Of a DNA stretch of 23,433 nucleotides, positions 1 through 21,372 are shown piece after piece. The notes beneath the pieces were generated by a model, which saw only the letters and a program-made list of their open reading frames with translations, was not told where the DNA came from and made no database searches. This DNA is from an uncultured virus (IMG/VR IMGVR_UViG_3300021431_000104). Its lineage: Duplodnaviria > Heunggongvirae > Uroviricota > Caudoviricetes. The stretch lies in IMG/VR virus record IMGVR_UViG_3300021431_000104; one strand, written 5' to 3'. The first letter of the stretch is position 1, and each line of letters begins with the position of its first letter. The position numbers and the translations under genes are program-made.

Positions 1-1524
1 AGTTTTTATACATAGAGGCATTAATTTAAACATCCAATGTTTACCATTAATCACTCCCCATGGGTAGTGATAGGTATTAGTATGAGAGGGGTTCCTCCAA
101 CCCAGCCTTCCACTTGTTGGAGGGGTTCCAGTATGCCACATAAAGGTTAACTGTATGGGGTCAAGTAGGGTATTGCCTAATAAGTTACTAGTACTCTTAC
201 TAAGCCAAGACCCTGCAATATACCTATTATCTTCATCATCTCCATAGGGTTTAATATAGGAAGTTTCCATAACTGAGGGCATTTCTTTGTATATGCCGAA
301 TATAACGGGTTTACCAATATATTCATAGTATATTATAAAACCATCGGATTTAGTTGGCAAAGAGCTTACTATACCATCCCTTTGCCATAGTTTAGCTGGA
401 GCTCCTCTACCGGCATCTATAGAAGATCGGATCTTAAACTCTGGAGTATATATACAGTAGTGGCCATAAATGTCATCTTCAGTTTCTGGTAGAGTATGTT
501 CATATAATTCTGTAGTAGTTATATCTCCTATGTTATAACGACCTAAACCTTCACTACCTACATTACTAAAAGCAGTTAGTGGTACAGAGATTGAACTAAG
601 GTGATAATTAATGAAGCCCTCCTGTTGAGATATCTTTAAATAAAGTGGTTCAGCTCCGTGTATACCAGAACCTTTACCATCACTTATCTCATTAAAGGTT
701 ATAGTACCAGACCTACCACTAGTTAGATTATTAGGCTGAACTTTAGCCCATAGTATATAACTAAAGGAAGCATCTACTACATTGGGATTTAAGTAAACGT
801 TATTATCCCAATAATTTATAAACTCCTCCCAAGTGTCAAAATCAAAATAATTTCCATGAGTATGTTCTAAATCAGAGTATGTCCATATATGGTAATTTAA
901 CTTTGGTTCTGTTACCCAATCGGGTACTGCAGAAACGTCTGGTCTACAAGGTATTCTACTCTTATTACTTTCTGGAGTATCATCATCTGTTGGTACAACT
1001 CCGTCATATTCGATGTTCTTATAGTACATCTTAAACCATATAAGGTCAATTAGAGTTGTAGAGTTAATCTCTCTACCATAATGTTCTTTAGAAAAATCTC
1101 CAACAGTCTCCTCTAATCCTGCCAAAGTACTGTAGGGTTTACTAATAACCTCTCTTATATAAGTGTTACCACTAATGGTTTCAGTTTTACCACAACTAAA
1201 CCTTACATAAGCCGTATCCTGGACTTTTTTGGTTTCTTCTGAAACCCTAGTATCACCTATACTATATAGTGGAGCTATATAACTCCATGTATAAGAGCTA
1301 GGATCAGGGTCTTCACCTTCTTTACCTTTGTGGGTTAAGGATACGTTATAGATCTTAGTTAATAGATGTATAGAAGCTGAACCCTTAATAGGAGTATTAC
1401 TGTTATTCTTACTAGTAGGAAATACATTGATAGTTTGATTACCTTGTAGGTTATCTAATCTATCTCCTACCACTTCCTGACCGTCTATGACGGCTTTTAG
1501 TTTAAAATGAGATTCTTCTGCCAT
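1..1524 (-). CDS. Partial (>508 aa, runs off the window) virion/tail-associated protein with BACON-like Ig-fold domain(s); not in the supplied ORF track
   Basis: Manual translation from the ATG at 1524 (MAEESHFKLKAVIDG...) stays open to base 1. It contains SAVPDWV...AKVQPNNLTSGRSGTITF...LYLKISQQEG, matching the BACON pattern W...N..(R)..itf...Q. It starts 2 nt after the stop of the upstream gene. Confidence 0.75.
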   Translation of the reverse strand, partial: MAEESHFKLKAVIDGQEVVGDRLDNLQGNQTINVFPTSKNNSNTPIKGSASIHLLTKIYNVSLTHKGKEGEDPDPSSYTWSYIAPLYSIGDTRVSEETKKVQDTAYVRFSCGKTETISGNTYIREVISKPYSTLAGLEETVGDFSKEHYGREINSTTLIDLIWFKMYYKNIEYDGVVPTDDDTPESNKSRIPCRPDVSAVPDWVTEPKLNYHIWTYSDLEHTHGNYFDFDTWEEFINYWDNNVYLNPNVVDASFSYILWAKVQPNNLTSGRSGTITFNEISDGKGSGIHGAEPLYLKISQQEGFINYHLSSISVPLTAFSNVGSEGLGRYNIGDITTTELYEHTLPETEDDIYGHYCIYTPEFKIRSSIDAGRGAPAKLWQRDGIVSSLPTKSDGFIIYYEYIGKPVIFGIYKEMPSVMETSYIKPYGDDEDNRYIAGSWLSKSTSNLLGNTLLDPIQLTFMWHTGTPPTSGRLGWRNPSHTNTYHYPWGVINGKHWMFKLMPLCIKT

Positions 1525-1525
1525 A

Positions 1526-2119
1526 TCATTGGTATTTTTTTAGTTCTCGTCTAAGATTCGTTATTAGGTATTTCTTAAGCCTTTCTGTACCACCAACAGC
1601 ATTAAAAGAAGGTCTAAACAGGGGTCTAGGTGGAATGGTATTATGAAAAAGATTACTATCTCCTCCATCAGCTCCATCTCCATACTCCAATAATCTTGCT
1701 AGTTGTATTAGAGTAAGTTTAGACTTACGGGACCTTCCATACTTGTTTACTGGGTCTACCGCTTTCTCATTAGGGTTAGGTCCTACATAGTATCTACCTT
1801 GATAGTTTCTTAATTTTATACTATGTAGCATCTGACCTGATAGTTGCCAAAAGCCCTTTACATCGTATTTCTTAAGGTAGTCCTTAGAATGAGGTTTCCA
1901 GGATACTCCTCGGGGAGGTGTATTATACATAATACAACTCCTTATGTATTTTGCTAGCATTTTACCAAAATTAGTGCAAGCTTTATTATAAGCATTCATT
2001 TCTATCTCTGGTAACTCCCTCAAAAGTCTCTCTGCTAGCTTTTGTTTTTCGGGATTTAAGTAAACGGTATCTATACTTATTTCTGGGATAGAACCGATAG
2101 TAAATATGGATCTAGGCAT
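1526..2119 (-). CDS. Neck/tail-completion (virion morphogenesis, HK97-gp10-like) protein
   Basis: Basic 197-aa protein with LLEYG...IPPRPLFRP, a C-terminal motif typical of phage neck/morphogenesis proteins. It lies downstream of the head-completion genes. Confidence 0.6.
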   Translation of the reverse strand: MPRSIFTIGSIPEISIDTVYLNPEKQKLAERLLRELPEIEMNAYNKACTNFGKMLAKYIRSCIMYNTPPRGVSWKPHSKDYLKKYDVKGFWQLSGQMLHSIKLRNYQGRYYVGPNPNEKAVDPVNKYGRSRKSKLTLIQLARLLEYGDGADGGDSNLFHNTIPPRPLFRPSFNAVGGTERLKKYLITNLRRELKKYQ

Positions 2120-2498
2120 AAGCTAAGTATTTAATAAGATTCTGATATAGGATCATAGCAATATCTCCTGCTATAGTAGAAGCTAATTCACCGAAGGTTG
2201 GTAAATTATAATAGTTACAAATATCGTCTTGAAGATGGTTTATTTCGTGAACTAAGGTATTCACAAACTCCTCTTGAGAGTTAGTCCATCCAATACCCAT
2301 GATACTATATCTACCTTGAGTTAAAGTAAATCCAGAGTTCGGATTAACTATAGCTATAGCTACATCTTTAATACCCTCGTTACTACAACCATTCTCCCAT
2401 AACATAGGTAATACTATGTCTAAATCATTTACTGTTACATTGTATAGAATTGATAGTCTCCAGCTATAACGAGGTAGCTGGAGACTCTGAGCTATCAT
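2112..2498 (-). CDS. Small zincin-like metallopeptidase (HExxH)
   Basis: NTLVHEINHLQDD motif followed by a downstream E (GELAS), as in minimal gluzincins. It overlaps both neighbouring genes. Confidence 0.6.
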   Translation of the reverse strand: MIAQSLQLPRYSWRLSILYNVTVNDLDIVLPMLWENGCSNEGIKDVAIAIVNPNSGFTLTQGRYSIMGIGWTNSQEEFVNTLVHEINHLQDDICNYYNLPTFGELASTIAGDIAMILYQNLIKYLAYA

Positions 2499-2917
2499 GA
2501 TTGTTCAAGTATTTCTATCCAATCTATCTCTATACCGTTAACGGCCATAGCAGCTAGCCATTTTGCAAAGATAACTCCTTCTTTAGCATCTGGGTCATCT
2601 ATAGTATTTTTTATATACTTAGCTAGATGGAGTTCATCCTCTAAACAACCATTTTCCTCATCCATCATATCTGCCTTAGCCATATTAGCTACATAGACAT
2701 AGTCATAGAGGCGATTATTAGCTAACCTAATATTATGATTAGCTAAGATAGTGTCTACCTGTTCTTTGGTAAAAGGTTCTATAGGCTGTAACTCTTCATC
2801 GTCTAAGAACATATTACTAACTGCAAACTTACATAAAGCTTGGTTAAAGTGAGGTCCAAAGTGCATCATATAGATTCTCTGAGACCTTGGTAAAGTTTCG
2901 TATTGTGTAAGATTCAT
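2495..2917 (-). CDS. Hypothetical acidic helical protein of the accessory cassette (~140 aa)
   Basis: The ORF track starts at TTG 2950, inside a hairpin. The ATG at 2917 (MNLTQYE...), preceded by an A-rich leader, is the more plausible start. Motifs: YDYVYVANMAKAD and YIKNTIDDPD. Confidence 0.75.
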   Translation of the reverse strand: MNLTQYETLPRSQRIYMMHFGPHFNQALCKFAVSNMFLDDEELQPIEPFTKEQVDTILANHNIRLANNRLYDYVYVANMAKADMMDEENGCLEDELHLAKYIKNTIDDPDAKEGVIFAKWLAAMAVNGIEIDWIEILEQS

Positions 2918-2940
2918 TTTGTTTTTGATTTTAACAACAA

Positions 2941-2972
2941 TAAAGGGCAATAGAAGTTGCCCTCTATTGCCC
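2941..2972 (-). terminator. Intrinsic terminator/attenuator-like hairpin inside the cassette
   Basis: GGGCAATAGA (2945-2954) and TCTATTGCCC (2963-2972) form a 10-bp perfect stem with an 8-nt loop. A short U-rich tail follows on the minus strand. Confidence 0.55.
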
Positions 2973-2998
2973 GATAATAAAAGTAATAAGTGATTAGC

Positions 2999-3307
2999 TT
3001 ACCAGTTATATCTTTCGTTATATCCCCAGTCTTCATCCTCGGGACGAACTACATAACCTCGCATATGAGGAGGTACTTCCATAAAACCTCCCTGTCCGCC
3101 TCTCCTATTAGGTGACATAGTATAACTACCTCTACCTCTCATACGAGGGCTACGACGGAAACTCATCTCACTTTTCAGATTTTCACCTTTCTCTTTCTTT
3201 TCTGCCTTCTCCAAGCACTCTACCATATTACTAGCGAGTTCCTGGATACCTTCAGCCATATCTAAAAGCTTATCACGGTCTTCATCATAAATTTCATAGA
3301 TTTTCAT
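2999..3307 (-). CDS. Hypothetical protein: acidic N-terminal helix plus Arg/Gly/Tyr-rich disordered tail
   Basis: 102 aa; C-terminal half RRSPRMRGRGSY...RRGGQGG...RGY. Confidence 0.75.
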   Translation of the reverse strand: MKIYEIYDEDRDKLLDMAEGIQELASNMVECLEKAEKKEKGENLKSEMSFRRSPRMRGRGSYTMSPNRRGGQGGFMEVPPHMRGYVVRPEDEDWGYNERYNW

Positions 3308-3312
3308 ATCAA

Positions 3313-3855
3313 TCAGGATTGTTTAACACCATGACTTAGGTTACCTCCATTCTCAAGGATTATCTTTACCAAAGTGTTAACATTCTCAGTTAGAGTATCT
3401 ACTTTAGTATTAAGACTGTTAAACTGACTATCCCTTTCAGCTTCTTTAGCGAAATTAGGATTTAAACTCTTTAATATAGAATCTCCTGCTTGAATGACTT
3501 TATGATGATAGGATTCTGAGGCTATGATCTGTTTACTGTTCTGAATCATAACTTCCGTTTCTGATATCATATCAGCCCGGTTATCCGCTATAACGGTACC
3601 GTTGTTAAAATCTGCCAAGTTCAAATTAGCTGGTACTTGATTAAACTCTCTGATACCATCATCAAATTTTACTTTAAGATTAACCACCATTTCACTCATA
3701 TTGGGTAAACCTATGGTTACTCCCGGAGTAAAGGTTTGATGTTTAGGCTGAAGAGGGCTTACCTGCTCTACTTGACCGATCTTTAATACAGGTCCATTTT
3801 GACCAAGCTTATCTAAGAGATAAATAGGAGCTCCTTGTCGAATATTGGAAAACAT
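3313..3855 (-). CDS. Hypothetical protein: beta-rich N-terminal domain plus C-terminal coiled coil
   Basis: 180 aa, tightly packed in the operon. Heptad pattern FNSLNTKVDTLTENVNTLVKIIL. Confidence 0.8.
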   Translation of the reverse strand: MFSNIRQGAPIYLLDKLGQNGPVLKIGQVEQVSPLQPKHQTFTPGVTIGLPNMSEMVVNLKVKFDDGIREFNQVPANLNLADFNNGTVIADNRADMISETEVMIQNSKQIIASESYHHKVIQAGDSILKSLNPNFAKEAERDSQFNSLNTKVDTLTENVNTLVKIILENGGNLSHGVKQS

Positions 3856-3889
3856 AAATCTAAGTGATTTTTGTTAATACTCAGTTAAC

Positions 3890-4240
3890 TTATGAGTTAG
3901 TAGCTGTAGTAGCAGTTGGTGCATACGGAGCCATTAACTGTAAAGTCTTAGTAGACTTGTTATATTGTATGAGGTAAATACCGGTTTGATTTAAACTAGC
4001 TACTGTAATAGCTGCACCATTTAAACCTGTTAAAGGTAAAGTGCTACCATTTACAGATAGCAGTATGGGCAAAGTACCGGTTGCCTCAATGGCAGTACTA
4101 AGGCGAACCGATACATAACCCACAACGCTACGTCCTCTAAAAGTACCATTAGGCAGAGTAAGAGTAACGTTTTCTGTACCTACAGTAGTTTTTATAACAT
4201 CAACCCAACCCCTTCTCTGATTAATATTGATAGGAGTCAT
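3890..4240 (-). CDS. Small Thr/Val-rich beta-sandwich protein (adhesin or fibre-tip-like)
   Basis: 116 aa with alternating hydrophobic strands (VGYVSVRL, GIYLIQY, TLQLM) and few charged residues. Confidence 0.7.
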   Translation of the reverse strand: MTPININQRRGWVDVIKTTVGTENVTLTLPNGTFRGRSVVGYVSVRLSTAIEATGTLPILLSVNGSTLPLTGLNGAAITVASLNQTGIYLIQYNKSTKTLQLMAPYAPTATTATNS

Positions 4241-4251
4241 GTGGGTATAAG

Positions 4252-5229
4252 TTAACCGAAAAAACCATCATTACAACCGCAGCAGCCACCGTAGTAAGGG
4301 TTCTGCTGAACGGCTACTAGATTTGGATAAACTACAGGAACTGTATTAGGCTGTTTAGCAGCAATGCTATCTACCTTGTCGTCCAATGTCTGTATACGAG
4401 CATTTATAGGAGCGACCATAGAGTTAAGCATGATACCAAACTGCTTGTTTTGGTTCTCTTGAGAAAGCTGAGTGCGGAGATTGGTGTTCTCATCACGTGT
4501 ACGATCCAACTTATCCTGGAGATTCTGGGTCTGCATTTCACAAAGCTTATCCAGTATTCTCTGGTTATTGTTGTTATCGTTCGTAGTAATGGTATAAGTC
4601 TGCTGGCAAAGACCAAGTTCATCACGACCCTGGTTAATTGCCATCTGGTTCTGTATACCATTGAGACCTTGCTGGAGGGTTGCAACATGACCAGACATAG
4701 CCTGCTGCATCTGACAACAACACTGAGCAATCTGGTTACCCAGAGTACAAGTACCATTCTGGATAGAGTTGATGATCTGCATAGCATTCAGACCCTGATT
4801 GTTTGCTATCTGGTTGATAGCTGTCTGAATAGTCTGAACAGCACCATTTACAAGGTTAAAGTCCTGACCAAGCATAGTGCTCAAAGTCTGGATAGCCGTA
4901 CGAGCCTGTTCACCTTGTGAAACGATGGCATTCATCAAAAGTTCACGACCAGCATTGTTGTCGATTTGGTTAGAGAGGAATCCCGCTCCTGCATTGCCTC
5001 CATTCGCATTGCCTCCGAAGATGTTACCAAAACCTCCATTACTGAATAGGAGACCAAGCAGGAATCCCAGGATTCCTCCTCCCCAACCATTGCCTCCAAA
5101 AAGGCCATTATTGTTACCAAAACCTCCGCCCATAAAAGGCAAGATCCAAGCAGGTACATTACCTGCAGAATTCCCAGAACCACTGTCTGGGAATACCATT
5201 ACCCTAGAAGGGTTTTCAGAATAAGCCAT
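4252..5229 (-). CDS. Gly/Asn/Gln-rich membrane-anchored coiled-coil protein with CCC and C-terminal GCCGC motifs
   Basis: 325 aa. FG-rich N-terminus, hydrophobic segment GGGILGFLLGLLF, Q/N-rich helices, QCCCQ, coiled coil LQDKLDRTRDENTNLRTQLSQ, ending PYYGGCCGCNDGFFG. Confidence 0.9.
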   Translation of the reverse strand: MAYSENPSRVMVFPDSGSGNSAGNVPAWILPFMGGGFGNNNGLFGGNGWGGGILGFLLGLLFSNGGFGNIFGGNANGGNAGAGFLSNQIDNNAGRELLMNAIVSQGEQARTAIQTLSTMLGQDFNLVNGAVQTIQTAINQIANNQGLNAMQIINSIQNGTCTLGNQIAQCCCQMQQAMSGHVATLQQGLNGIQNQMAINQGRDELGLCQQTYTITTNDNNNNQRILDKLCEMQTQNLQDKLDRTRDENTNLRTQLSQENQNKQFGIMLNSMVAPINARIQTLDDKVDSIAAKQPNTVPVVYPNLVAVQQNPYYGGCCGCNDGFFG

Positions 5230-5360
5230 AAGTCTTAATTCGTTTTTAAAAGTTAATTAAATCAGTTACATATAAAATAAACAGTGATCTTGGGCCCTAA
5301 TCAAATATTTAAGTTATACATATATAATCTTCGTAGTATCGTGCTTACAATTTATCTCTT

Positions 5361-5440
5361 AAAAAATCCAGCAAACAGGTTAGCTAAAACATCAACCTCA
5401 AGAGAGTTTTGACATTTTCAATGAAACCCTATTTGCTGGA
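5361..5440 (-). terminator. Long hairpin with U-tail ending upstream transcription before the cassette
   Basis: TCCAGCAAA (5367-5375) pairs with TTTGCTGGA (5432-5440), with further imperfect inner pairing. The A6 run at 5361-5366 gives a U-tail on the minus strand. Confidence 0.55.
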
Positions 5441-5504
5441 GGTAGAAATTATTTTGCCTAGTTAGGTTTAATAATTCCTATTTTTCTTCGTAGATCACCT
5501 TATT

Positions 5505-5891
5505 TTATTCTACTTTACCATTTACCTTTTCAACCAGGTTAATAGCGATAGCAATAGCCTGATCTACATCGTAATCATTGTTTACAACTAAATCCTTAGC
5601 CATATCAAAGACTCTCTGGTTCTTAATACTAGGTACACCACTATTCTTGGTGAATTCTAATAGCTTTTCAAAAGGGTTCTTGTCATAGGTATTGACCTTA
5701 AAATCCAACTGGATATTAAGGTGTTCTCTTATATGTTCTTTACCCTTACTATCTATATAGGTAACCCAATCACGTTTTGTTCTTTTACCTTCAGCGTGTT
5801 TATGGAAAGCTACTATTTCTACTTCTTCACCTGTTTTCCTAATTACGTAATTACCAATAAGGTAACCAAGTGTACTTGAATCCTCTAACAT
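5505..5891 (-). CDS. Hypothetical protein (128 aa)
   Basis: ATG-initiated ORF co-oriented with its neighbours, with an A-rich leader. No recognisable motif. Confidence 0.75.
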   Translation of the reverse strand: MLEDSSTLGYLIGNYVIRKTGEEVEIVAFHKHAEGKRTKRDWVTYIDSKGKEHIREHLNIQLDFKVNTYDKNPFEKLLEFTKNSGVPSIKNQRVFDMAKDLVVNNDYDVDQAIAIAINLVEKVNGKVE

Positions 5892-5927
5892 AATTTAACT
5901 TGTTTTTAATAGTTGATAAATACTATT

Positions 5928-6187
5928 TTATATAACCTTGAATAAAGCTACTACGATAAAATACAAGGCAGTAGTAAAGGCAATAAATATGCCATATTCT
6001 ACAACATCCTCATATTCGAATCTAGTAGTCTGTTTCGTTTTATATTGGAATATTTCCCTTGCTACCATAAAAGCAAATACTAGAACACCACCAAATGCAA
6101 TAGTAGTAGCATTAAAACTAAATATAAGACCTAATGCAATAATAGCAATAATGGTAAGACTACTAAACCTTTTAATTCTCTTGTCAT
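5928..6187 (-). pseudogene. Frameshifted small multi-TM membrane-protein gene
   Basis: The ATG at 6187 gives MTRELKGLVVLPLLLLLH*. The -1 frame is open for ~87 codons (…LTIIAIIALGLIFSFNATTIAFGGVLVFAFMVAREIFQYKTKQTTRFEYEDVVEYGIFIAFTTALYFIVVALFKVI*, TAA at 5928-5930) and has no canonical start near its 5' end. Confidence 0.6.
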
Positions 6188-6190
6188 AAT

Positions 6191-6727
6191 TTATGGTTCT
6201 GCTATTTTATAAAGACTAACATGACATACAGCTGACCTGACAATATCGAAAGAGTTTGATAAAGTAACAATAGTTTCTAAACTTCCACCTTGAAGTATTT
6301 CTGGAGTCCGATATATCTCTGTTCCATCCATCATAAATATTACTTGTGTTTTGACTGTTCCAGTAACATTATCAGCTACAACTATATAATCTCCTGCTGG
6401 CATTGTATCTATATTTACACTTTCATACTTTGAAGAATATGTATGGTCAAATATCTTTTCTGCAAAACAAGCAGTATATATTTTATCCTCAGTGGCTACA
6501 ACTGTACGTGTTGAATTTGTATCTCCATCGTTCCATTTTCCAAATTTATAACCAGTATTAGGTGTAGCAGTTATTTCAACAGACCTATTAACAGAATAAA
6601 TTCCAGCACCTGTACAAACACCACCAGCTACAGGTTTTGCAACAACATCAATATGTACGCCGTCACCTGGGTGTTCAATAGCAGAATCATAAAAATTTGC
6701 ATTCTTAATAATTAACTTTTTTCCCAT
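6191..6727 (-). CDS. Virion-surface-type protein with InlB B-repeat/Flg_new_2-like domain
   Basis: GGVCTGAGIY...VEITATPNTGYKFGKWNDG...RTV...YTACF matches the divergent InlB B-repeat consensus. Confidence 0.7.
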   Translation of the reverse strand: MGKKLIIKNANFYDSAIEHPGDGVHIDVVAKPVAGGVCTGAGIYSVNRSVEITATPNTGYKFGKWNDGDTNSTRTVVATEDKIYTACFAEKIFDHTYSSKYESVNIDTMPAGDYIVVADNVTGTVKTQVIFMMDGTEIYRTPEILQGGSLETIVTLSNSFDIVRSAVCHVSLYKIAEP

Positions 6728-6757
6728 AATTTTTAATTTTAATATTTAACATTTAAT

Positions 6758-8962
6758 TTATGAAATTACCACATTTATATCTTCTGAAGGCATATCAAAG
6801 TGATAACAATACTTTGCATTACCTACTCCAGAAACATTAGAAAGACTTACTAATTCTCCAACTATTGTATTGCCTGTCTGAGTGCCAGTTACTGTTATTG
6901 AAGGTGCACTATCATTATATGTTATAATTGAACATCTGCCACCTTCAACCCAACTACTGTAAGCATGATAGTTAATAGAAGAATTTACGTTTATACTATG
7001 TAATTTGTTTATTTCTGCTTCTCCCCATGCTTTTAGGATTTCATTAGCAATATAGTGATGATATATATCACTTGGATGAGTGACTTGTCCCGCAGAATGT
7101 ATATAAAAGTATTCATTTTGTCCTGTAGCATCTAACATAGCGTCTCCTAATGTTTCCCAACGACTTGAATTATTCCAATATATATCTATATATGCTTCAG
7201 CATCATTATCTATAGATGCTTGCTTTATAGCTCTCGCGAGGTCTGTACCTGACTCATAATCAGGAGAACATAGATATATTTTAGCAGAACTTCTTTCTTT
7301 AATAAAAGAAATCAAATTTGAAAATTTACTATATGCACTGTTATATGTTCTATAACTACCAGGAATATTAGCACCTAATAGGATGATTATAACATCAATA
7401 TCGTCATCTACAGTTAGTATATTATCAAATATTGCATGTAGTGCTGTATCTGACTGAGGGGCATCTCGTTCCCAAGAAGCAGCGTTTACTCTTACAGTAT
7501 CACTTATATTTAGAGCGTCTGTTAAATTACTAATCCAATCAGTATTCATGTTAGAAGAAGACATTCCTCTGCCACCCCAGCCATTATCAGCTATATAGCC
7601 CCAAGAATGAGAAACAAAAAGAACTTTATTATATCTATTTTTTATCTTTTCTAATACTAATTGTTCATTTACTACAATCAATCTATATCTATTACCATTA
7701 TCATCAGTCAACTTTATTTGGTTTTGTAATGATGCAAGTTCTTTGTCAGTGTCATTTATTTTTTCTTCATTACTTTTGACTTGTTGTTCTACATCATCAA
7801 TCTTATCTGTTAAGTATTTAGCAGGATATTTAATTTCCCAACTAAAATAACAGCCGTAAGATTTTTGCCAAATAGATTCAATCTCATCATCTGCAATATT
7901 TGAATCTCCAGCAAGAACATGGTATTCTGCACTGTCAATTCTCTTTAATTTAACAGCATTTCCTACAATAAAAAGTTGTTGACCTTTTTTAATATTTATG
8001 GTTGTGGATAAAACATTAACACCAGATTCGACTGTAAAAGGGTATTGCTGTATTATATCTATATAACCATGTACTTCATCATATCTACATACTGCTATAT
8101 TACAGATACCTGCTGTATTAACATTTAATGTAATGGTATTTATTACGCCATCATCTTTTGCTTGGGAATCCCATAAACCTATGTAATTAAAATTCAAATC
8201 AGATGAAGTAGTACCACTATCATTTCCAATCTTTTCAACATATTCATCCTTTATTTTTAAGGATTTTGAACTGTCAAAGTTCTTAGTCTTAAAATGACCA
8301 TTCTCAAATCTTGCAAGAACATTACCATTATCATCCGTAATATCTAAATCAGACTCTCGTATATCATCTGCAACATCGACTGGAAGATTAGTAGCTTCTA
8401 AAAGATTAGTTTGTTCAACTTCTTCTATATTCCACTCTCCTGCTGTATGAGCAACTATAAACTTATATAATAACCCATCATATTTGATAATAGTGCCTAT
8501 ACTATAATCAGTGTCCTCATCAAATGCTTCAATACTGTCAATACCTATATTAGCGTTATTTTTAACAGAAGAAAAGTTCTTAGTTTGTATATGTCCGTTT
8601 TCATATCTAACAAGAATATTTCCTTGCTCATCAGAAATATCAAGGTCTGATTCAGCAATAGAGTTTGCTACAGTTGGAGTAAAACTATATACTCCACCAC
8701 TTTTAACCAGATTTTCACTCCCAGCAGTGGGTTCATCATCTGTAGTTAGACCTAAATTACTTTTAGCCTTCTGTTTCTCATCATCAGTTAGATTTTGAGT
8801 AGATTTTACCGAAAGGAATTTTTCTGATAAACTCCCATGTAATATATTAAGGAACTCTTCCTTAGTTAAATTAGTATGATTTTGTTCATTATAATCATCC
8901 AGATAGCCCTGGAGAAGTCTCTGGTCTATCTGCTCACAAGTGTAATATTTACTAGTATACAT
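6758..8962 (-). CDS. Modular spike/fibre protein: N-terminal anchor, internal repeats, CBM5/12-like motif, SGNH/GDSL esterase domain
   Basis: SGNH-like blocks KVLFVSHSW, IIILLGAN and VTHPSDIYH. CBM-like DYSIGTIIKYDGLLYKFIVAHTAGEW. Duplicated ESDLDIxDxxGNxLxRxENGHxxTKNFxS repeat. Confidence 0.7.
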   Translation of the reverse strand: MYTSKYYTCEQIDQRLLQGYLDDYNEQNHTNLTKEEFLNILHGSLSEKFLSVKSTQNLTDDEKQKAKSNLGLTTDDEPTAGSENLVKSGGVYSFTPTVANSIAESDLDISDEQGNILVRYENGHIQTKNFSSVKNNANIGIDSIEAFDEDTDYSIGTIIKYDGLLYKFIVAHTAGEWNIEEVEQTNLLEATNLPVDVADDIRESDLDITDDNGNVLARFENGHFKTKNFDSSKSLKIKDEYVEKIGNDSGTTSSDLNFNYIGLWDSQAKDDGVINTITLNVNTAGICNIAVCRYDEVHGYIDIIQQYPFTVESGVNVLSTTINIKKGQQLFIVGNAVKLKRIDSAEYHVLAGDSNIADDEIESIWQKSYGCYFSWEIKYPAKYLTDKIDDVEQQVKSNEEKINDTDKELASLQNQIKLTDDNGNRYRLIVVNEQLVLEKIKNRYNKVLFVSHSWGYIADNGWGGRGMSSSNMNTDWISNLTDALNISDTVRVNAASWERDAPQSDTALHAIFDNILTVDDDIDVIIILLGANIPGSYRTYNSAYSKFSNLISFIKERSSAKIYLCSPDYESGTDLARAIKQASIDNDAEAYIDIYWNNSSRWETLGDAMLDATGQNEYFYIHSAGQVTHPSDIYHHYIANEILKAWGEAEINKLHSINVNSSINYHAYSSWVEGGRCSIITYNDSAPSITVTGTQTGNTIVGELVSLSNVSGVGNAKYCYHFDMPSEDINVVIS

Positions 8963-8985
8963 ACGATTAAAATTTTATGGGGTTT

Positions 8986-9534
8986 TTAACTTTTTCCATA
9001 GAAGGGTTCTCCAGAAATATCTCCGAAGGTTATACCGTCAATGTCTGCAAAAGCATTATCAAACTCGGCACTAGTGATTTTTGTATCTCTATCTCTCCTG
9101 AGTATAATCTGGAATACTATGGGTTCATCTTTAGCTTGAGCTACCTCCGTATCTCCGTCTGGTTTATAAGGTATACCATTTATAATAAACCTATCTTCAG
9201 ACCAATTGAATTGAAAGTAACCCTCACTGTTTAAATAAGGTTTAACAGCAGATTTTGGGATAAGTATAACCAAATTCTCATCATCTAACTCTCCTGAAAC
9301 AGTAGCTTTGTTAATAGGCCAGTTACGAAATGCGTTATAATAACAAAGAGCTTCAATAACTACTAAGTGATACTTAGGATAACTATCTTCACCCATTGAT
9401 AACATTTGGTTAAGGTTCCTACACCAACCCACTGTTTGCCTACCAGAGTCATCCTCTAGAAATTTCTGTACGATATGTTTATATCTATCCCAATCTACGT
9501 TCCTAACATACCTAGAACGAGGTTTAGTTGCCAT
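8986..9534 (-). CDS. Putative head-closure (head-tail joining) protein
   Basis: 182 aa, directly after the adaptor. The beta-rich pattern DRFIINGIPY resembles head-closure proteins. Called mainly by gene order. Confidence 0.5.
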   Translation of the reverse strand: MATKPRSRYVRNVDWDRYKHIVQKFLEDDSGRQTVGWCRNLNQMLSMGEDSYPKYHLVVIEALCYYNAFRNWPINKATVSGELDDENLVILIPKSAVKPYLNSEGYFQFNWSEDRFIINGIPYKPDGDTEVAQAKDEPIVFQIILRRDRDTKITSAEFDNAFADIDGITFGDISGEPFYGKS

Positions 9535-10418
9535 TATTTATGAGTTAATACTGTTGGAGGATTAGGACCATCTAGACCTTTAGGATGCCTACGATTAACT
9601 ACTATAGGTACTCTAGTAGGTTTATAAGCATTATCACACATAGGTAAGAAGATCATTAACCTAGAAGCCAAATTACACAAATTCTTTCTCAGTACTTCTA
9701 TAATACCGTTTGGTTTAAGAGCTTCAGAGTAAGATTTGTATAAGGTAGATAAAGAATCTGATAATTCATCGAAATACTCCACTTCGGTAGGACCAGTCTG
9801 TATTCTCTTTACTCTACCAGTAGAACCCTGCTCATCTCCACCTTTATCCTCAGATTTATCCGAACTAGATGATTGGGATTGGTAGGTTAAGGCATCTATA
9901 TATTGCCCAGTACCAGTAAGTAAAGATATAATCTGCATATTAAGAAAATCCCATACTGCCAATTCCATTATTAGCTGGTTTTCTAGTCCCTCATAATAAA
10001 GTTCATTAGTATATTCTTCTAAAGGAATACAATGATCCACTAGAGGTCCTAAATATAACTGCCATTTTTGAATAAAGGTAACTTTCTGTTGTAAAGTCAT
10101 CCCACTATCTACTAGATTAGCAGGTACATAAAGATCTATCAGGTTATAAATAGAATCGCTAAGATGAGTCTTTATACCAGAATCCGAAACTAGAATAGTC
10201 TGAGATACATATGAAGGTCCATCACTACCAGATTCAGTGATAGTTAGGGTTACGATGTAACAGCCTGGATTCTCATAAGTAAAGGTTGGATTCAGTTCTT
10301 GACTTTCTCCGCCTTCAACACCAAAGTCCCAACCAATGGTTGCATCGGCCGGGACTTTGTTTATCACCTTAAAAGAAACTTCCAAGCCTTTCGCAACATA
10401 TACGAAAGCTAGGTCCAT
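9534..10418 (-). CDS. Putative head-tail adaptor with N-terminal PKD (Ig-like) domain
   Basis: PKD signature GLEVSF...WDFG...NPTFTYENPGCYIVTLTIT. The C-terminal half has VKRIQTGPTEVEY, typical of adaptors. Located just after the capsid genes. Confidence 0.6.
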   Translation of the reverse strand: MDLAFVYVAKGLEVSFKVINKVPADATIGWDFGVEGGESQELNPTFTYENPGCYIVTLTITESGSDGPSYVSQTILVSDSGIKTHLSDSIYNLIDLYVPANLVDSGMTLQQKVTFIQKWQLYLGPLVDHCIPLEEYTNELYYEGLENQLIMELAVWDFLNMQIISLLTGTGQYIDALTYQSQSSSSDKSEDKGGDEQGSTGRVKRIQTGPTEVEYFDELSDSLSTLYKSYSEALKPNGIIEVLRKNLCNLASRLMIFLPMCDNAYKPTRVPIVVNRRHPKGLDGPNPPTVLTHK

Positions 10419-10423
10419 ATAAG

Positions 10424-10819
10424 CTACTCTTCTGGTTTAAAATCTTTGATTATAACAGAAATGATATCCTTTACAGTATCAGTTTCTTCAACATCGATAT
10501 CATGTACCTTAGCCAAAGCCTTAGCCTGATCTACTGTAATATCCTTAATCATCTTGTCTATGGTAACACCCTTTTCGAACTGAGCCTTGAGCTTGTTGTC
10601 AAGTTTCTTAACGTCAGCCTCAGTAAGCTTCTCTACCTTCTGGTCTGGCTGTACCATAATGAGGTGACCTGAATTGAGTGCCATAGATATACGCCTAGAA
10701 CGCATCTGACGATCAGTAATTTCTACTTTCTCTCCATGAGCAATGGTAATACCAGTAGTTTGGTCGAAGAAGCCATTAGCTTTAGGACCAAGAGCTATAA
10801 AATAAGAATTTTTTGCCAT
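10424..10819 (-). CDS. Small capsid-adjacent protein with C-terminal HeH/Rho-N-like helical motif
   Basis: 131 aa; C-terminus ITVDQAKALAKVHDIDVEETDTVKDIISVII. Confidence 0.55.
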   Translation of the reverse strand: MAKNSYFIALGPKANGFFDQTTGITIAHGEKVEITDRQMRSRRISMALNSGHLIMVQPDQKVEKLTEADVKKLDNKLKAQFEKGVTIDKMIKDITVDQAKALAKVHDIDVEETDTVKDIISVIIKDFKPEE

Positions 10820-10851
10820 ATTATTATCCTCTTAAAGTTTAGATGGTTAGT

Positions 10852-10899
10852 AAAAACCAGGAACAGGAGGATTATTAACCAACCCTACCTGAACCTGGT
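10852..10899 (-). terminator. Intrinsic terminator downstream of the major capsid gene
   Basis: The minus strand reads ACCAGGTTCAGGTAGG...CCTCCTGTTCCTGGT TTTT, an imperfect GC-rich stem followed by a U-run. Confidence 0.65.
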
Positions 10900-10923
10900 C
10901 ATGAAAAAACTTATTATCAACAA

Positions 10924-12039
10924 CTACTCGAGATTTACAAGCATATATGGATCCTTATTCATGTACTCTGGGAAACCATAAGTACTGAATGCCTTGGTCT
11001 GGTCGAGTACAATTACAGAATCGTTATATATCTTAGAGAAACCAGTAGTAAGGGTAGCATATACTGCCTCGGTCTGATTAGATACAATTCTCTCAGACTC
11101 AAGCATAAGCTGCTTGGCAGTAAGCTTAACCAGAGCTGCCTTAGGATCTATCATTACGATGTCGTTAGCAGGTACTCCTGGATGGATCCACATATCTGCA
11201 GTGTTAGGTACTGGAGTATGGAGGTTGAGAGTAGCTTCGGTTGTACCCTGACTACGCTTCTTAAACTCATCGAGGTCGAGGAGACTAAGAGCTATATCCT
11301 CGGCAGAGATCATAGTAGTAAAGTTACGACCTATACGAGCACCACGGATCCATATACGAAGCATATCCTTATATGTAAGGGTATTAGCTGTAGTTACACC
11401 TACGATATCTGCAGCCTCTGAACCATCAGCCTTGTTACCAAGGAGAAGAGTATCAAGAGCCAGTGTATCAAGGGCATATCCGAGCTGAATACCGAAATCA
11501 CGGAGGTAAATACCCAGGATATCGATAGATACATAGTTACGTACCTCATCAGTGAGCTTAAAGCCCTTACCAATCTTGAAGAGAGTAACACTCTTCTGGC
11601 CAAATGAAACTGTTCCCAATGGGATGGTCTCAGCCTCATTTATCTTGGCAGGAGCAGCATCAGACATGTTAACCCAAGGCTGGATAGCAGTCAAACCGTT
11701 AATAGGCTGATCACCCTGTATGATAGTTGGGTAGAAAGGTGCCTCTCGCATACCCGTGGTGATAGCTGCACGGATTATCTCTGGAACAATCCAACGAATA
11801 TCCTGATTAGGCATATCGAAGATATTCTGCATAGTGTCTACCTTTGGATTCAGGTCAATCTTCTCAAAGAGAGCTGCCTGTGAGATACCCCACTTACTCT
11901 TTACCAGCTCCTCAAAAGAGATATCTACTGGCTTCTTATTCTGGCCTCCTGCACGAACACTTTCAAGAGAAAGGACCATGTCCTTAAATTCTTTCTTAAA
12001 GTCGTTGGCCTTCATTTTTGTAATATCTATACCTTCCAT
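10924..12039 (-). CDS. Major capsid protein (HK97 fold)
   Basis: 371 aa, after the protease and decoration genes. Motifs WIVPEII, INEAETIP and KIGKGFKLTDE. Codon usage suggests high expression, and a terminator follows. Confidence 0.85.
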   Translation of the reverse strand: MEGIDITKMKANDFKKEFKDMVLSLESVRAGGQNKKPVDISFEELVKSKWGISQAALFEKIDLNPKVDTMQNIFDMPNQDIRWIVPEIIRAAITTGMREAPFYPTIIQGDQPINGLTAIQPWVNMSDAAPAKINEAETIPLGTVSFGQKSVTLFKIGKGFKLTDEVRNYVSIDILGIYLRDFGIQLGYALDTLALDTLLLGNKADGSEAADIVGVTTANTLTYKDMLRIWIRGARIGRNFTTMISAEDIALSLLDLDEFKKRSQGTTEATLNLHTPVPNTADMWIHPGVPANDIVMIDPKAALVKLTAKQLMLESERIVSNQTEAVYATLTTGFSKIYNDSVIVLDQTKAFSTYGFPEYMNKDPYMLVNLE

Positions 12040-12058
12040 TATTATAAAATATTAGGGT

Positions 12059-12541
12059 TTAACGTACAAGAACTGGTACCAACTCAACCTCGCCTCCTGA
12101 AGGAGCAGAAGCTGGAGCCAAAGCAATAAACTTACTCTCTGCTCCAGAGGTAGTGTTAGTACAATTAGGATAACGATTATTAAACAGAGTACCATCTGGT
12201 TTTACATAACCAGGAGTAATAGCAGCCTTAGCAGCCCAGTAACAAATCATGTAACCTTCTACTGCTACGGTAACCTCGATAGGATACTCTCTCTGACCAG
12301 CATAAGCAGGTGTTACACTATCGGTAACTGCAACACCAAGATAAACCTGATTCTCAGCTCCGGTATAAGCAATAAGCTTACCGGTATTATCCAAAGCTAC
12401 TGGCATACCCTGAACAATAGTTACATTTGCGGCAACATTAAAAGCCTGATGAAGTTTGTGGGATTCATGCTTGTAAATTGAAACTCTAGGAGTCTTCTGT
12501 CCATAGAGAGTCAGCTTATCCCCAGCCTGTACAATATTCAT
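12059..12541 (-). CDS. Capsid decoration/cement protein
   Basis: 160-aa Ala/Val/Gly-rich beta protein (GMPVAL...YLGVAV...VTVAVEG) between the protease and the MCP. Confidence 0.7.
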   Translation of the reverse strand: MNIVQAGDKLTLYGQKTPRVSIYKHESHKLHQAFNVAANVTIVQGMPVALDNTGKLIAYTGAENQVYLGVAVTDSVTPAYAGQREYPIEVTVAVEGYMICYWAAKAAITPGYVKPDGTLFNNRYPNCTNTTSGAESKFIALAPASAPSGGEVELVPVLVR

Positions 12542-17052: not shown

Positions 17053-17661
17053 CTAGTTATAGGTGATTGAAATCTCTAGATCCGTTCCAGGATTTTTTTG
17101 TAGGTTAGGATAATAAAATTCATTTATACCTACTTTATAAGATATCCTCCGAGTCTTGAAAGAAATTCCGATACCTAAATCGGCTAACTTATTAAAATAC
17201 CGATATTTGAGATAAGCATAAGGTTCTACCTTTAACCTAAAACCTGCTTCCTTTTGAGTTAAATCTCCATTTACCCAGTTATACTGATATTTATCGAGAT
17301 CGATCTTATATTCCTTGGTAAAGAACCCATTCATGGATGGTCTGAAGAAAGATAGGTTTAGTTTATCCTTGTTTAGTAAGGCTTGAACTAGAGAATCTCC
17401 TTTTTGTATAGAATCTGTAGTAGTAGTAACTTCTTTAGATTCTTTCCAATTCTTACCATACAGGAAAACGTATTTAGGTAGTACCTTAGTAGAATAACCC
17501 TTAACTGGTTTATAGGGTTTAGATATATAAACTGTATCGGTATTGCCTATAACCTTGGGTTGTTTTTGTAATTGGGATATCTCATGCCTCTGCCTAAAAT
17601 AGGTAAAGCAAAGGATAATAGTAATCCCCAATAACAAGAATGTTGCAATTTTGTATTTCAT
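17053..17661 (-). CDS. Membrane-anchored protein, putative spanin-like lysis protein
   Basis: N-terminal TM helix (IATFLLLGITIILCFTYF), DTVY motif, and C-terminal amphipathic beta strands ending ISITYN. Confidence 0.5.
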   Translation of the reverse strand: MKYKIATFLLLGITIILCFTYFRQRHEISQLQKQPKVIGNTDTVYISKPYKPVKGYSTKVLPKYVFLYGKNWKESKEVTTTTDSIQKGDSLVQALLNKDKLNLSFFRPSMNGFFTKEYKIDLDKYQYNWVNGDLTQKEAGFRLKVEPYAYLKYRYFNKLADLGIGISFKTRRISYKVGINEFYYPNLQKNPGTDLEISITYN

Positions 17662-19214: not shown

Positions 19215-19748
19215 TTAGTCCTCCTTACTATTTAACCAATCTTCTTTAGAACCCAAGATGATAATTAAGGACCTCAAACTGGTATAATAGGCGGGTGAAG
19301 TAGCATATTTTGCCTTTATGTTGTCGGTTATCTTCAGAGCAAACATTAGAGGTTGGTCCCTATAAGGCCAAGCATCACTATACATTGGCTTCTTAAAGAT
19401 AGCCAGATGGTCTTTTAGGCATTCCTCTAGTGTTTCATAATGGCGGAAAGCTCTAATTACTATATACTTCCACCTATTAACGTCTAGTTTAATCTTTCTC
19501 AGTACTTTATCTGGAGGAGTAAGAGTCTTCCTATCATTACTAAAATACTCGGTAGTTTGTACCATATCTACTGGACCTTTCCAAGTAGAACCCTTGGTAA
19601 TACCAAAGATATTATTCTCTCCAATAGTGTGAGCTCCCCATCCTGTTTCCAGTACTGCTTGAGCTGTTACAAATAAAGGATGAATTTCTCCACCCTTAGC
19701 GGCTTGATAAACTCTCTTAGCGAAATCCATTTGTTTTTCGTTTGCCAT
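19215..19748 (-). CDS. Endolysin, GH73 glucosaminidase (FlgJ-like)
   Basis: AQAVLETGWG (catalytic Glu), NNIFGI, FRHY and YATSPAY (YxTD-like) motifs. Confidence 0.88.
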   Translation of the reverse strand: MANEKQMDFAKRVYQAAKGGEIHPLFVTAQAVLETGWGAHTIGENNIFGITKGSTWKGPVDMVQTTEYFSNDRKTLTPPDKVLRKIKLDVNRWKYIVIRAFRHYETLEECLKDHLAIFKKPMYSDAWPYRDQPLMFALKITDNIKAKYATSPAYYTSLRSLIIILGSKEDWLNSKED

Positions 19749-20525: not shown

Positions 20526-20738
20526 ATGGCAAAAGCAGTTTTCGTAATAGTGGGTATTGCTTACTTACTAGCATTACCTATGGCAATCAGAACTTCTGTA
20601 GCTTTCTGGTTATTCAGAGAAAAAGATCCTATAGCTCATAAAGCTATGCAATGTGGATTCTTCCTGGGTTTCATCAGTATATGGCTTATCTATCCCATTT
20701 ATCTTATTAAGGACGCATTATCTAACTTAAAACATTAA
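20526..20738 (+). CDS. Small 2-TM membrane protein
   Basis: Two hydrophobic stretches and a WLIYP motif. Confidence 0.7.
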   Translation: MAKAVFVIVGIAYLLALPMAIRTSVAFWLFREKDPIAHKAMQCGFFLGFISIWLIYPIYLIKDALSNLKH

Positions 20739-20744
20739 AGCAAT

Positions 20745-20981
20745 ATGAGAGAACTAATTCACATCTTTTACGTATTGGGTGGTGTAGTAACCCTAATTTA
20801 CTACTGGTATATTACTATCAAGGAGTATAGAGGAGATAAATATGGATCTATCACCTTCTTCGATATCATAGCTTCCCTTTGGGTTATGATTGGATCTTGG
20901 CTGAGTTTAACCTTGATCCTATTCGGAGATAGATTAGATGAAATTAAAATAATCAGTAAAGAGCCTAAGAACAATGAATAA
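20745..20981 (+). CDS. Small 2-TM membrane protein
   Basis: Two hydrophobic stretches; tightly packed with its neighbours. Confidence 0.7.
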   Translation: MRELIHIFYVLGGVVTLIYYWYITIKEYRGDKYGSITFFDIIASLWVMIGSWLSLTLILFGDRLDEIKIISKEPKNNE

Positions 20982-21372
20982 TATTTTCTTTTGGTTTTAC
21001 CTAATCAATATTGTGGTTCTTATCATCCTTTTCTTCTTAGTAAAGAAATTAGAGAAGAAGATGATAAAGCCCAAGATGAATAAATATACTTTTAAGTATA
21101 GATTATGTGGTGTCCTTTATATGCATACGGAAGTTCTAGAGGAGTGGAAGACAAGTAACTTAGGAAATACTTGTTATATTTATAAAGAATTTCTAGATGA
21201 AATGGTAGTTTTAAGTGATTACCTGCGGGAGATATGGAAACACTATAAGGGTGATCTCATAGAGGTTCAAGTATATATAGGATCTTCCCATTCAGATTGG
21301 GGAAATTTTGTGGGTAAGTATTTGATAAGAAAGGAGGGAGAAGTTATTTTTAAGGGACCTTATGAGTATTAA
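20974..21372 (+). CDS. Hypothetical protein with N-terminal TM helix
   Basis: IFFWFYLINIVVLIILFFLV followed by a basic stretch; overlaps the upstream stop. Confidence 0.65.
   Translation: MNNIFFWFYLINIVVLIILFFLVKKLEKKMIKPKMNKYTFKYRLCGVLYMHTEVLEEWKTSNLGNTCYIYKEFLDEMVVLSDYLREIWKHYKGDLIEVQVYIGSSHSDWGNFVGKYLIRKEGEVIFKGPYEY

Follow-up and report, generated by a model that had tools for sequence, protein, structure and literature searches.

The stretch of DNA analysed here (hereafter the window; 23,433 nucleotides [nt]) makes up most of a 24.8-kb IMG/VR record of an uncultured member of the Caudoviricetes (IMGVR_UViG_3300021431_000104), which is estimated to be 28% complete. Between positions 2112 and 5229 it carries six genes, designated g1 through g6, that constitute one conserved gene block, widespread in gut Bacteroidales phages. 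The block is accessory and mobile between unrelated phages, and it appears to bring expression signals of its own. The reading that we favour, tentatively and at somewhat less than an even chance, is that its products form a moron-type accessory machine that is anchored in the membrane and directed at the host, and that serves exclusion or envelope control and not head–neck morphogenesis.

All relevant genes of the window are on the minus strand, and the six co-oriented open reading frames (ORFs) that had been placed there in a preliminary description of the sequence were recovered in the ORF list. They are g1 (5229–4252; 325 amino acids [aa]), g2 (4240–3890; 116 aa), g3 (3855–3313; 180 aa), g4 (3307–2999; 102 aa), g5 (2950–2495; 151 aa from a TTG codon or 140 aa from the ATG at 2917), and g6 (2498–2112; 128 aa, with the motif HEINH). 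The spacers between consecutive genes from g1 to g5 measure 11, 34, 5, and 81 nt, g5 and g6 overlap by 4 nt, and the end of g6 overlaps by 8 nt the start of the following gene, a neck gene that matches PHROG 222 (tail completion/Neck1; E 1.2e-5). Five of the six genes match PHROG families (E 3e-4 to 9e-39), every one annotated as ‘unknown function’, and g5 matches Pfam DUF7841; the six are thus not chance ORFs. Besides DUF7841, no usable family was returned by Pfam (E ≤ 5) or by NCBIfam and PADLOC (E ≤ 0.1), profile searches of PDB sequences with g1, g2, g3, g5, and g6 yielded nothing significant, and megablast of window positions 1–12100 against GenBank phages produced no match. As the preliminary description had held, the family scans (PHROG, Pfam, and NCBIfam) assign none of the six to a recognisable core morphogenesis gene. 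A literature search returned no paper mentioning DUF7841 or the phage C3_41T2LP (see below), searches on outer capsid proteins and viral fibers returned only Hoc-type references, and the accessible part of the crAss001 structural atlas (PMC10172136) mentions no such proteins.

The synteny test proposed in the preliminary description bears out a unit that recurs independently of genomic position. We collected 85 IMG/VR loci from two scans (the best 80 of 377 confirmed relatives, together with the loci of the first scan), searched profiles built from the loci against whole reading frames with stops masked, and evaluated gene order wherever 2600 nt or more follow g1. The order g1-g2-g3-g5-g6 was found in 65 of 78 such loci, g1-g2-g3-g6 in nine, g1-g5-g6 in two, and g1-g3-g5-g6 and g1-g2-g3-g5 in one each. 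A genome collection yielded 27 further loci, 24 of them with enough room, and the exact order was present in 20 of these 24; all of these are counts of loci and not of independent events, because resemblance to g1 was the basis of selection and many of the loci are closely related. Nineteen of the 27 genome records are labelled Bacteroidota, including cultured Parabacteroides segnis (BX2) and P. leei (GYB001), and the remaining eight are metagenome bins labelled otherwise, possibly mis-binned phage contigs. A tblastn search of GenBank phages with g1 retrieved 20 records. Two families of crAss-like phages are represented among them, as is C3_41T2LP, a cultured Bacteroides phage that carries homologues of g1 through g6 in identical order, adjoining recombination genes. 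Membership in the block is flexible: cassettes devoid of g2 and g3 exist, the minimal cassette consisting of g1, g4, g5, and g6, and some crAss-like phages lack g5 or g6. One Muribaculaceae-labelled locus (L116, positions 39–4354; L numbers denote individual loci) is rearranged and reads g5, a 192-aa membrane-anchored coiled-coil protein, g6, g1, a 141-aa ORF, and g3.

The surroundings of the block differ from phage to phage. For 24 loci we compared the flanking proteins, 140 in all, with PHROGs and found an integrase gene directly flanking the cassette in four (L012, L019, L025, and L073) and a crAss-type capsid gene in three; other flanks comprise portal/MuF with protease/capsid genes, a primase, an anti-repressor with an endolysin, and a tape measure protein. 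The neck gene of the window adjoins the block in only two close relatives among the IMG/VR loci, and in a third relative (L119, with a neck protein 65% identical) the block is situated 5 kb further upstream, away from the neck gene. The head–neck location named in the preliminary description is therefore incidental. Presence also varies among related phages. The complete crAss001 genome gave no match to the g1, g5, and g6 profiles, and cr116_1, from the subfamily of crAss001, has g1 and g6 inserted between lysis and scaffold/capsid genes; g1 and g5 are present in cr109_1 and csAssE-Sib. Such an element, present in some and absent from other related phages and functionally unrelated to its varied neighbours, resembles a moron in this respect. 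A gene block that functions in phages as different as myovirus-like, crAss-like, and temperate ones, brings its own signals along, and can be missing from members of a single subfamily is not likely to have been tailored to any one virion; its free movement between unrelated phages suggests that its target is probably a feature that the hosts share.

Signals at the borders of the block set it apart from the adjoining genes. The 275-nt gap and the U-tailed hairpin noted in the preliminary description are both present, the gap at 5230–5504 and the hairpin at 5361–5440 on the minus strand, with a stem spanning 5440–5367 followed by six U residues at 5366–5361. The minus-strand segment 5450–5350 folds with −32.8 kcal/mol (z −5.5), and none of 200 shuffled sequences folds as well. 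The hairpin is kept in L003, a complete relative of 85.5 kb with terminal repeats, where one pair has undergone a compensatory change from A-U to G-C. This terminator-like element forms an insulating boundary between the cassette and the head-decoration genes that precede it. In L003, a 347-aa ORF (6443–7486) with weak similarity to tyrosine recombinases (PF00589; E 8e-5, below the cut-off) is located directly upstream of g1, between a 124-aa gene and the conserved hairpin; the window is devoid of this ORF and retains ∼60 nt resembling its 3′ end (5441–5504).

The −7 promoter box of Bacteroides has the consensus TAnnTTTG. Of 70 distinct loci, 33 have an exact copy in the 150 nt that precede g1, compared with 6.5 ± 2.5 (maximum 14) in 200 shuffles and with 0 of 70 in coding DNA, and 24 of the 37 occurrences are positioned 50–74 nt before the g1 ATG. 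In the window, the candidate promoter and operator of g1–g4 comprises the sequence AATATTTG (5302–5309, minus strand), which has one mismatch to the consensus, followed by a GGGCCC palindrome at 5297–5292. A scan for sigma-70-type promoters is uninformative for Bacteroides. Many of the listed loci have short inverted repeats directly after the −7 box (identified by eye and uncounted), including GTTGCGCAAC, GTTAGCTAAC, GTAACGTTAC, and TGTCA..TGACA; placed at operator position, they look like candidate operators for a dimeric regulator. The repeats vary by locus and were seen in L008, L013, L014, L016, L018, L021, L023, L026–L028, L034, L037, and L048.

Small genes of the helix-turn-helix (HTH) type or resembling the DnaA C-terminal part are located directly upstream of the block in subsets of loci. 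In about 10 loci, among them L008 (7140–7810), L006, L014, L024, L026, L034, L072, and L073, g1 is preceded by a ∼130-aa multi-pass membrane protein and a ∼98-aa HTH protein that matches PADLOC ‘mad1’ (E 4e-5), a pair that may belong to a longer version of the cassette. In crAss-like phages with recoded stop codons (L033, L038, L040, L042–L044, and L047), the wiring of the block seems to be different, because TAnnTTTG is missing there and the motif CTGTATAACTGG is common to these loci instead; in each of them the cassette directly follows a tRNA-like gene (T-arm GGTTCGATTCC). The g1 gene of cr109_1 contains two in-frame TAG codons.

A second hairpin lies between g4 and g5, splitting g1–g4 from g5–g6 as the preliminary description had it, and it is kept across the family. 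In the window it occupies 2945–2972 on the minus strand and consists of a 12-bp stem with six G-C pairs followed by TTTATTGTTG, a T-run. Because the TTG start of g5 falls inside this hairpin, the ATG at 2917 is the likely start. We folded the distinct g4–g5 spacers of at least 25 nt (10 loci with shorter spacers by ORF calls were left out), and a GC-rich hairpin (ΔG ≤ −10, with values from −13 to −32 kcal/mol) was found after the g4 stop in 33 of 34, with sequences that differ between loci. The element is probably an attenuator that lowers expression of g5 and g6.

Sequence from the stretch is present in four gut metatranscriptome runs from two studies (X1 from one, X2 through X4 from the other). 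Run X1 contains a single 2334-nt RNA contig (2962–5295, minus strand) that exactly spans g1 through g4 and is the likely g1–g4 transcript; the contigs of X2, X3, and X4 end at 5288, 5293, and 5295 on the upstream side and at 2987, 2971, and 2972 on the downstream side. The contig starts are thus 7–14 nt downstream of the one-mismatch −7 box of the window, and the other ends fall at the post-g4 hairpin, which with its T-run is the block's own terminator. Word depth of the g1–g4 contigs is 31.9 in X1 and 6.8–11.7 in X2 through X4, and that of the listed flanking contigs is 4–8.6 and 2.1–5.1, respectively; low or missing RNA cover outside 2962–5295 was not counted as silence. We take the RNA as a hint of a g1–g4 transcript that agrees with the sequence signals, because assembled contigs cannot prove ends or levels. 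Taken together, the data suggest a layout of promoter, g1 through g4, an attenuating hairpin, and then g5 and g6 at a lower dose by read-through; in the window, g5 and g6 run on into the neck gene. The conserved hairpin, the −7 box, and the matching contig ends make g1–g4 look like an autonomous moron-type operon, and the evidence for a promoter, an operator-like palindrome, and a terminator of its own argues for such an accessory unit and not for a virion assembly line.

This design invites comparison with colicin operons, in which a regulated promoter drives abundant proteins and an internal terminator leaves downstream genes at low dose. By analogy, the block could encode a released, bacteriocin-like killer with g1 as the toxin, g2 as the receptor binder, and g5 and g6 in immunity or activation, a picture with which the Gly-rich N-terminal region and long helix of g1 and the binding-type fold of g2 would agree. 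We consider it far-fetched: searches of Pfam, NCBIfam, and PDB sequences turned up no relative among bacteriocins or among immunity or lysis proteins, g1 has no recognisable killing domain and only half the length of a colicin, and the benefit to the phage would be unclear.

The protein encoded by g1 is central to the interpretation, and the membrane-anchored machine of moron type is favoured because g1 is the sole membrane-type protein of the block and its sole universal one. It matches PHROG 16490 (E 8.9e-39) and has 3593 relatives at E ≤ 1e-3 (representatives of clusters at 90% identity), none of them named and none with a Pfam domain. Its composition is unusual, with 13% Gly, 24% Asn plus Gln, and nine Cys. 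An acidic N-terminal tail leads into a Gly-rich hydrophobic segment (ILGFLLGLLF, approximately residues 51–61), which is followed by a highly conserved GAGFLSNQIxNDxGRELLM block, a helical domain (residues 91–184) that carries a CCC motif, a long helix (residues 193–291 in a low-confidence model), a PNTVPVxYPN motif, and a Gly/Tyr/Phe/Cys-rich tail that usually terminates in Phe or Trp; alignments indicate that this layout is common to the family. Within the CCC motif, Cys170 and Cys171 are invariant and Cys172 is nearly so, in keeping with the preliminary description, according to which CCC-containing proteins recur in gut phages. The hydrophobic core occurs as three sequence types in which hydrophobicity is kept (mean hydropathy of the best 15-mer, 1.72 among 160 relatives). 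Six Cys residues after the hydrophobic segment is the commonest number (108 of 160 relatives), and the number is even in 120 of 160. No fused or longer form of g1 was found, which is weak evidence. A complex prediction for g1 (residues 85–325), g3, and g2, with g2 as the partner, gave no answer (score 0.00); run without controls, it counts neither way.

The same features call to mind a lysis or envelope-fusion module, in which g1 would be a spanin-like or class I fusion-like protein with an inner-membrane anchor, heptad helices, and a membrane-active Gly/aromatic tail reaching the outer membrane. Its hydrophobic Gly-rich N-terminal segment, its helices, its Gly/aromatic C-terminal tail with terminal Phe or Trp, and the six or otherwise even number of Cys residues after the hydrophobic segment would be compatible with such a role. 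The lysis variant gains from cr109_1 and cr116_1, in which the block follows annotated holin, LysB-like, or L,D-carboxypeptidase genes by 1–2 kb, and from the endolysin gene that adjoins it in L081; the fusion variant gains from weak heptad-type matches of g3 to paramyxovirus F (E 0.016) and of g1 to mitofusin HR2 and a chain named HR1 (E > 0.3). However, these fusion-protein matches are not significant, and the partners of a spanin are missing, since alignments of g2 through g6 reveal no N-terminal hydrophobic signal or signal peptide and no lipoprotein partner, and none of the six alignments displays a lipobox or a signal-like N-terminus. In the window, the endolysin gene (19215–19748) is 14 kb away and has small membrane proteins of its own nearby, so that g1 is not part of a lysis cassette there, and a flanking endolysin was found in only one of the 24 scanned loci. 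Nor does g1 replace the LysB-like gene in cr109_1, because an annotated LysB-like gene is also present in that phage. A hydrophobic segment and long helices, which a type II inner-membrane anchor with a periplasmic coiled coil would need, are present in g1, but the flanking charges are too few to give an orientation. Five other genes would be left unexplained, and we regard a lysis or fusion module as improbable. A reading of the block as a lysis cassette proper was demoted on the same grounds, as adjacency to lysis genes is confined to two crAss-like records and the single endolysin among 24 scanned loci.

The product of g2 (PHROG 31654) is basic, with an isoelectric point (pI) of 10.1, and was modelled with AlphaFold2 as a beta protein of seven strands (mean predicted local distance difference test [pLDDT] 82.7). 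Among solved structures, the model agrees best with gp47, the tail fibre of Pa193, in its third ‘bead’ (residues 230–339; PDB 9b45), with Z 5.3 and a root-mean-square deviation of 3.8 Å over 98 residues at 13% identity; the next structure match has Z 3.2. The matched chain is itself a fitted AlphaFold model, according to the part of the source available to us (PMC11456595). In BFVD, the model has 26 matches at E ≤ 1e-3 that include parts of named proteins, namely a tail fibre, a tail-collar fibre, a hyaluronidase tail fibre, and a collagen-repeat protein, and no BclA entry is among the structure matches listed for it. The model thus places g2, with modest strength, among knob or bead domains of fibres, which is consistent with the ‘tip protein’ of the preliminary description. 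A 294-aa protein of a crAss-like virus (BFVD A0A8S5LXP6), named as ‘DUF7841 domain-containing’, also matches the g2 fold (TMq 0.68) and may be a fusion of g2 and g5.

The other two members of the g1–g4 group are less readily classified. The g3 protein (PHROG 28898) starts with a conserved domain, and its C-terminal half is helical and bears the motif LNPxYAxEK; its neighbours in the ESM Atlas are all viral hypothetical proteins, and the family is known only from viruses. No similarity between g2 and g3 was detected with hhalign. The g4 protein begins with a helix-like segment that gives way to a low-complexity tail rich in Arg, Gly, Tyr, Asp, and Glu. A g4-type ORF of 62–111 aa is present between g3 and g5 in all non-recoded loci (41 distinct sequences aligned), and g4 is retained in minimal cassettes. 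The labels initially attached to the proteins hold for g1 (rich in Gly, Asn, Gln, and Cys), g2 (beta), the Arg/Gly-rich tail of g4, and the acidic g5, whereas the coiled coil ascribed to g3 comes down to weak heptad-type matches in residues 109–164.

The fold of g2, the long helix of g1, and the apparent RNA abundance keep alive a reading, also that of the preliminary description, in which the block encodes a stalk-and-knob fibre, with g1 as an oligomeric coiled-coil shaft, g2 as the knob, g3 and g4 as adaptor or chaperone, and g6 as a maturation protease, and in which the fibre either decorates the virion or is released. We rate this fibre as unlikely and yet as a serious contender. It would account for the Pa193 and BFVD matches of g2 and for a predicted g1 helix of 99 residues, and it sits well with the position of the block within the late structural gene row of the window, with its frequent occurrence after very large tail-fibre-like genes (L005 and L013 by PHROG), and with RNA contigs of g1–g4 at least as deep as those of neighbouring virion genes. 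A virion fibre requires a docking site, yet the block is found in phages with unrelated capsids and tails, and g1 has a conserved hydrophobic, membrane-like segment. Minimal cassettes dispense with g2 and g3, the operon apparently has a host-type promoter, an operator-like palindrome, and a terminator of its own, and the g2 match is modest and made to a model. Nothing in the data demonstrates the dedicated assembly system that the preliminary description had proposed, for example a fibre or coat with Cys cross-links, chaperones, and a maturation protease; g2, g3, g5, or g6 is missing from some cassettes.

Downstream of the probable attenuator, g5 and g6 form a pair. The g5 protein is the DUF7841 member (PF25223; E 2.5e-24, 86.1 bits against a cut-off of 25.2) and also matches PHROG 38431. 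It is acidic (pI 4.5), and alignment identifies Ala32, Asp83, Asp108, Asp110, and Trp133 as invariant. A fused form exists, a single 355-aa protein (P0121) that combines DUF7841 with a PPDK_N domain. The g6 protein matches PHROG 1365, and His84, Glu85, His88, and Glu104 are invariant in 27 sequences, the last of them 16 residues past the second His. With an HExxH motif and a candidate third ligand, g6 is predicted to be a small, stand-alone zincin-like protein. A C-terminal CxxC is frequent among its relatives and lacking in the g6 of the window. Searches retrieved 1262 cluster representatives (50% identity) at E ≤ 1e-3, the best 150 of which are all 125–205 aa long; because this deep HMMER search returned only the protein's own small family among the best 150, it offers no bridge to a named one. 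Neither g6 nor three homologues matched MPTase-PolyVal or Peptidase_M78 of Pfam at E ≤ 5. The nearest named ESM Atlas cluster (score 0.88) has Peptidase_M78 in 19% of its members and is a lead only. Kinship with crAss001 gp4 (DUF4157) was rejected, as hhalign aligns only the HExxH turn, with a probability of 4.6%.

The depositors of phage C3_41T2LP labelled its g6 homologue in GenBank as ‘PolyVal metallopeptidase superfamily’, and this label suggests another role for the block, as proteins packaged in the head and injected (an ejectosome or polyvalent-protein-like cargo), with g1 entering the membrane of the new host and g6 acting as a PolyVal-type protease. The location of the block between portal/MuF and protease/capsid genes in L049 would be in line with injected cargo, and membrane helices occur in ejection proteins of other phages, crAss001 gp45 being discussed in this way in the accessible part of its structural atlas (PMC10172136). 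On the other hand, the label could not be reproduced with Pfam, in which neither g6 nor the C3_41T2LP protein matches PolyVal at E ≤ 5. Phage-specific targeting for packaging is hard to square with a block in unrelated phages, the block is missing from crAss001, and it has an apparent promoter and terminator of its own. We consider injected cargo highly improbable.

These observations can be combined into a working model for the favoured host-directed machine. Host RNA polymerase would start at a Bacteroides-type promoter ∼65 nt before g1, which an operator-like palindrome overlaps, and g1 through g4 would be transcribed as one abundant RNA. Transcription would mostly stop at the conserved hairpin after g4, such that the DUF7841 protein g5 and the putative zincin g6 are made at lower dose by read-through. 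We infer that the Gly-rich hydrophobic segment of g1 carries this protein into the inner membrane of the host, where it would make up a helical stalk. On or around this stalk, g2 with its fibre fold, g3 with its beta and helical parts, and g4, rich in Arg, Gly, and Tyr, would assemble, and the g5/g6 pair would process or control the assembly. The target would be the host envelope and not the virion, and the likeliest outcome would be that other phages are excluded or that passage across the membrane is otherwise controlled. A host-directed role explains how the block can function in myovirus-like, crAss-like, and temperate phages alike.

Several points weigh against this model. Apart from a weak match of g1 to the ZorA tail (see below), the searches linked none of the six proteins by homology to a known exclusion, defence, or membrane system; about 11 of the 24 scanned loci adjoin virion genes, and, as stated above, loci were picked by g1 likeness and many are closely related. 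The fibre fold of g2, the long helix of g1, and the RNA abundance of g1–g4 fit a structural fibre equally well. For g1, the hydrophobic core is short, the Lys and Arg residues flanking it (0.35 on the N-terminal and 0.09 on the C-terminal side) are too few to orient it, and the AlphaFold2 model is of low confidence (pLDDT 54) and too poor for a fold search. An exact TAnnTTTG is absent from the gap of the window, where only the one-mismatch box occurs, and from the region before g1 in 37 of 70 loci. Finally, the RNA evidence consists of assembled contigs, which cannot establish ends or levels, and a cassette common to co-resident phages could raise depth and break contigs at its borders.

The relevant genes of the window are, in order of transcription, endolysin, C5 methylase, large terminase, portal, protease/scaffold, a cement-like protein, the major capsid protein, a decoration-type run (PKD, CBM5/12, InlB B-repeat), a 128-aa gene, and, after the 275-nt gap, g1 through g6; 3′ of the block come the gene resembling tail completion/Neck1 and one whose product is longer than 508 aa. 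The decoration- or adhesin-type genes after the capsid gene (6191–10418, minus strand) encode a 294-aa PKD-domain protein, a 182-aa protein, a 734-aa CBM5/12 protein, in place of which L003 has an 873-aa gene, and a 178-aa InlB B-repeat protein. The probable lysis genes are distant from the cassette, with a glucosaminidase-type endolysin at 19215–19748 (minus strand), three small membrane proteins of 70, 78, and 132 aa on the opposite strand nearby (20526–21372, plus strand), and a 202-aa protein with an N-terminal membrane anchor encoded just before the terminase (17053–17661, minus strand).

Few accessory modules are as widespread among the Bacteroidales phages of gut and rumen as this block, which occurs in crAss-like, myovirus-like, and temperate phages, and it provides a handle on a step in the interaction between phage and Bacteroides that has yet to be recognised, such as exclusion, envelope control, or persistence. 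The question is directly testable, because C3_41T2LP, which grows on Bacteroides uniformis (strain MB20-41), and cultured Parabacteroides strains carry the block. A bolder version of the model, which we hold to be rather unlikely in its entirety, portrays g1–g4 as an undescribed, repressor-controlled inner-membrane machine with a Gly-zipper anchor, a CCC stalk, a fibre-fold knob, and a disordered Arg/Gly/Tyr-rich protein, accompanied by an attenuator-dosed DUF7841–zincin pair, that the resident phage would express independently of its virion genes to gate passage across the envelope. If correct, it would constitute a new class of phage exclusion or entry-control (or fusion-like) apparatus, common by horizontal transfer to thousands of gut and rumen phages.

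Comparison with described systems delimits what is new. The proteins g1, g2, g3, g5, and g6 are represented as single families by PHROG 16490, 31654, 28898, 38431, and 1365, with Pfam DUF7841 for g5, and the catalogues record neither the operon, nor its signals, nor its mobility. Bead and knob domains of tail fibres such as Pa193 gp47 resemble g2 in fold, but g2 is a free-standing protein of 116 aa and not the end of a long fibre. With spanins and class I fusion proteins g1 shares a hydrophobic Gly-rich segment, heptad helices, and Cys residues in the helical part; it differs from them in that it has no outer-membrane lipoprotein partner, is not linked in the window to lysis genes as a cassette, and matches none of them significantly in sequence. 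The HExxH motif and downstream invariant Glu of g6 are reminiscent of ImmA/IrrE (Peptidase_M78) and MPTase-PolyVal, whereas the partner of g6 is DUF7841 and not an XRE-type protein, and g6 has no Pfam match to M78 or PolyVal. PADLOC reports a weak match of g1 residues 99–290 to the tail of Zorya ZorA (E 4.9e-4, 16.8 bits), the likeness being that of a membrane protein with a long helical tail; g1 has no MotA-like membrane domain and is not accompanied by ZorB, ZorC, or ZorD, and the match is probably compositional.

The closest parallel is with the morons of lambdoid phages, which include HK97 gp15, a superinfection-exclusion membrane protein encoded within the tail gene row, and lom and bor of lambda. 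Like these, the block looks like a unit of promoter, genes, and terminator situated between late structural genes, is missing from relatives, and has a membrane protein among its products, and its RNA contigs stop at the borders of the unit. Unlike these, it has four to six genes and not one, with a probable internal attenuator followed by a putative protease pair, and its proteins bear no sequence relation to known moron products. The novelty of the block is thus that it matches no described system, as distinct from a demonstrated new function, and the design of its operon is of the familiar moron type.

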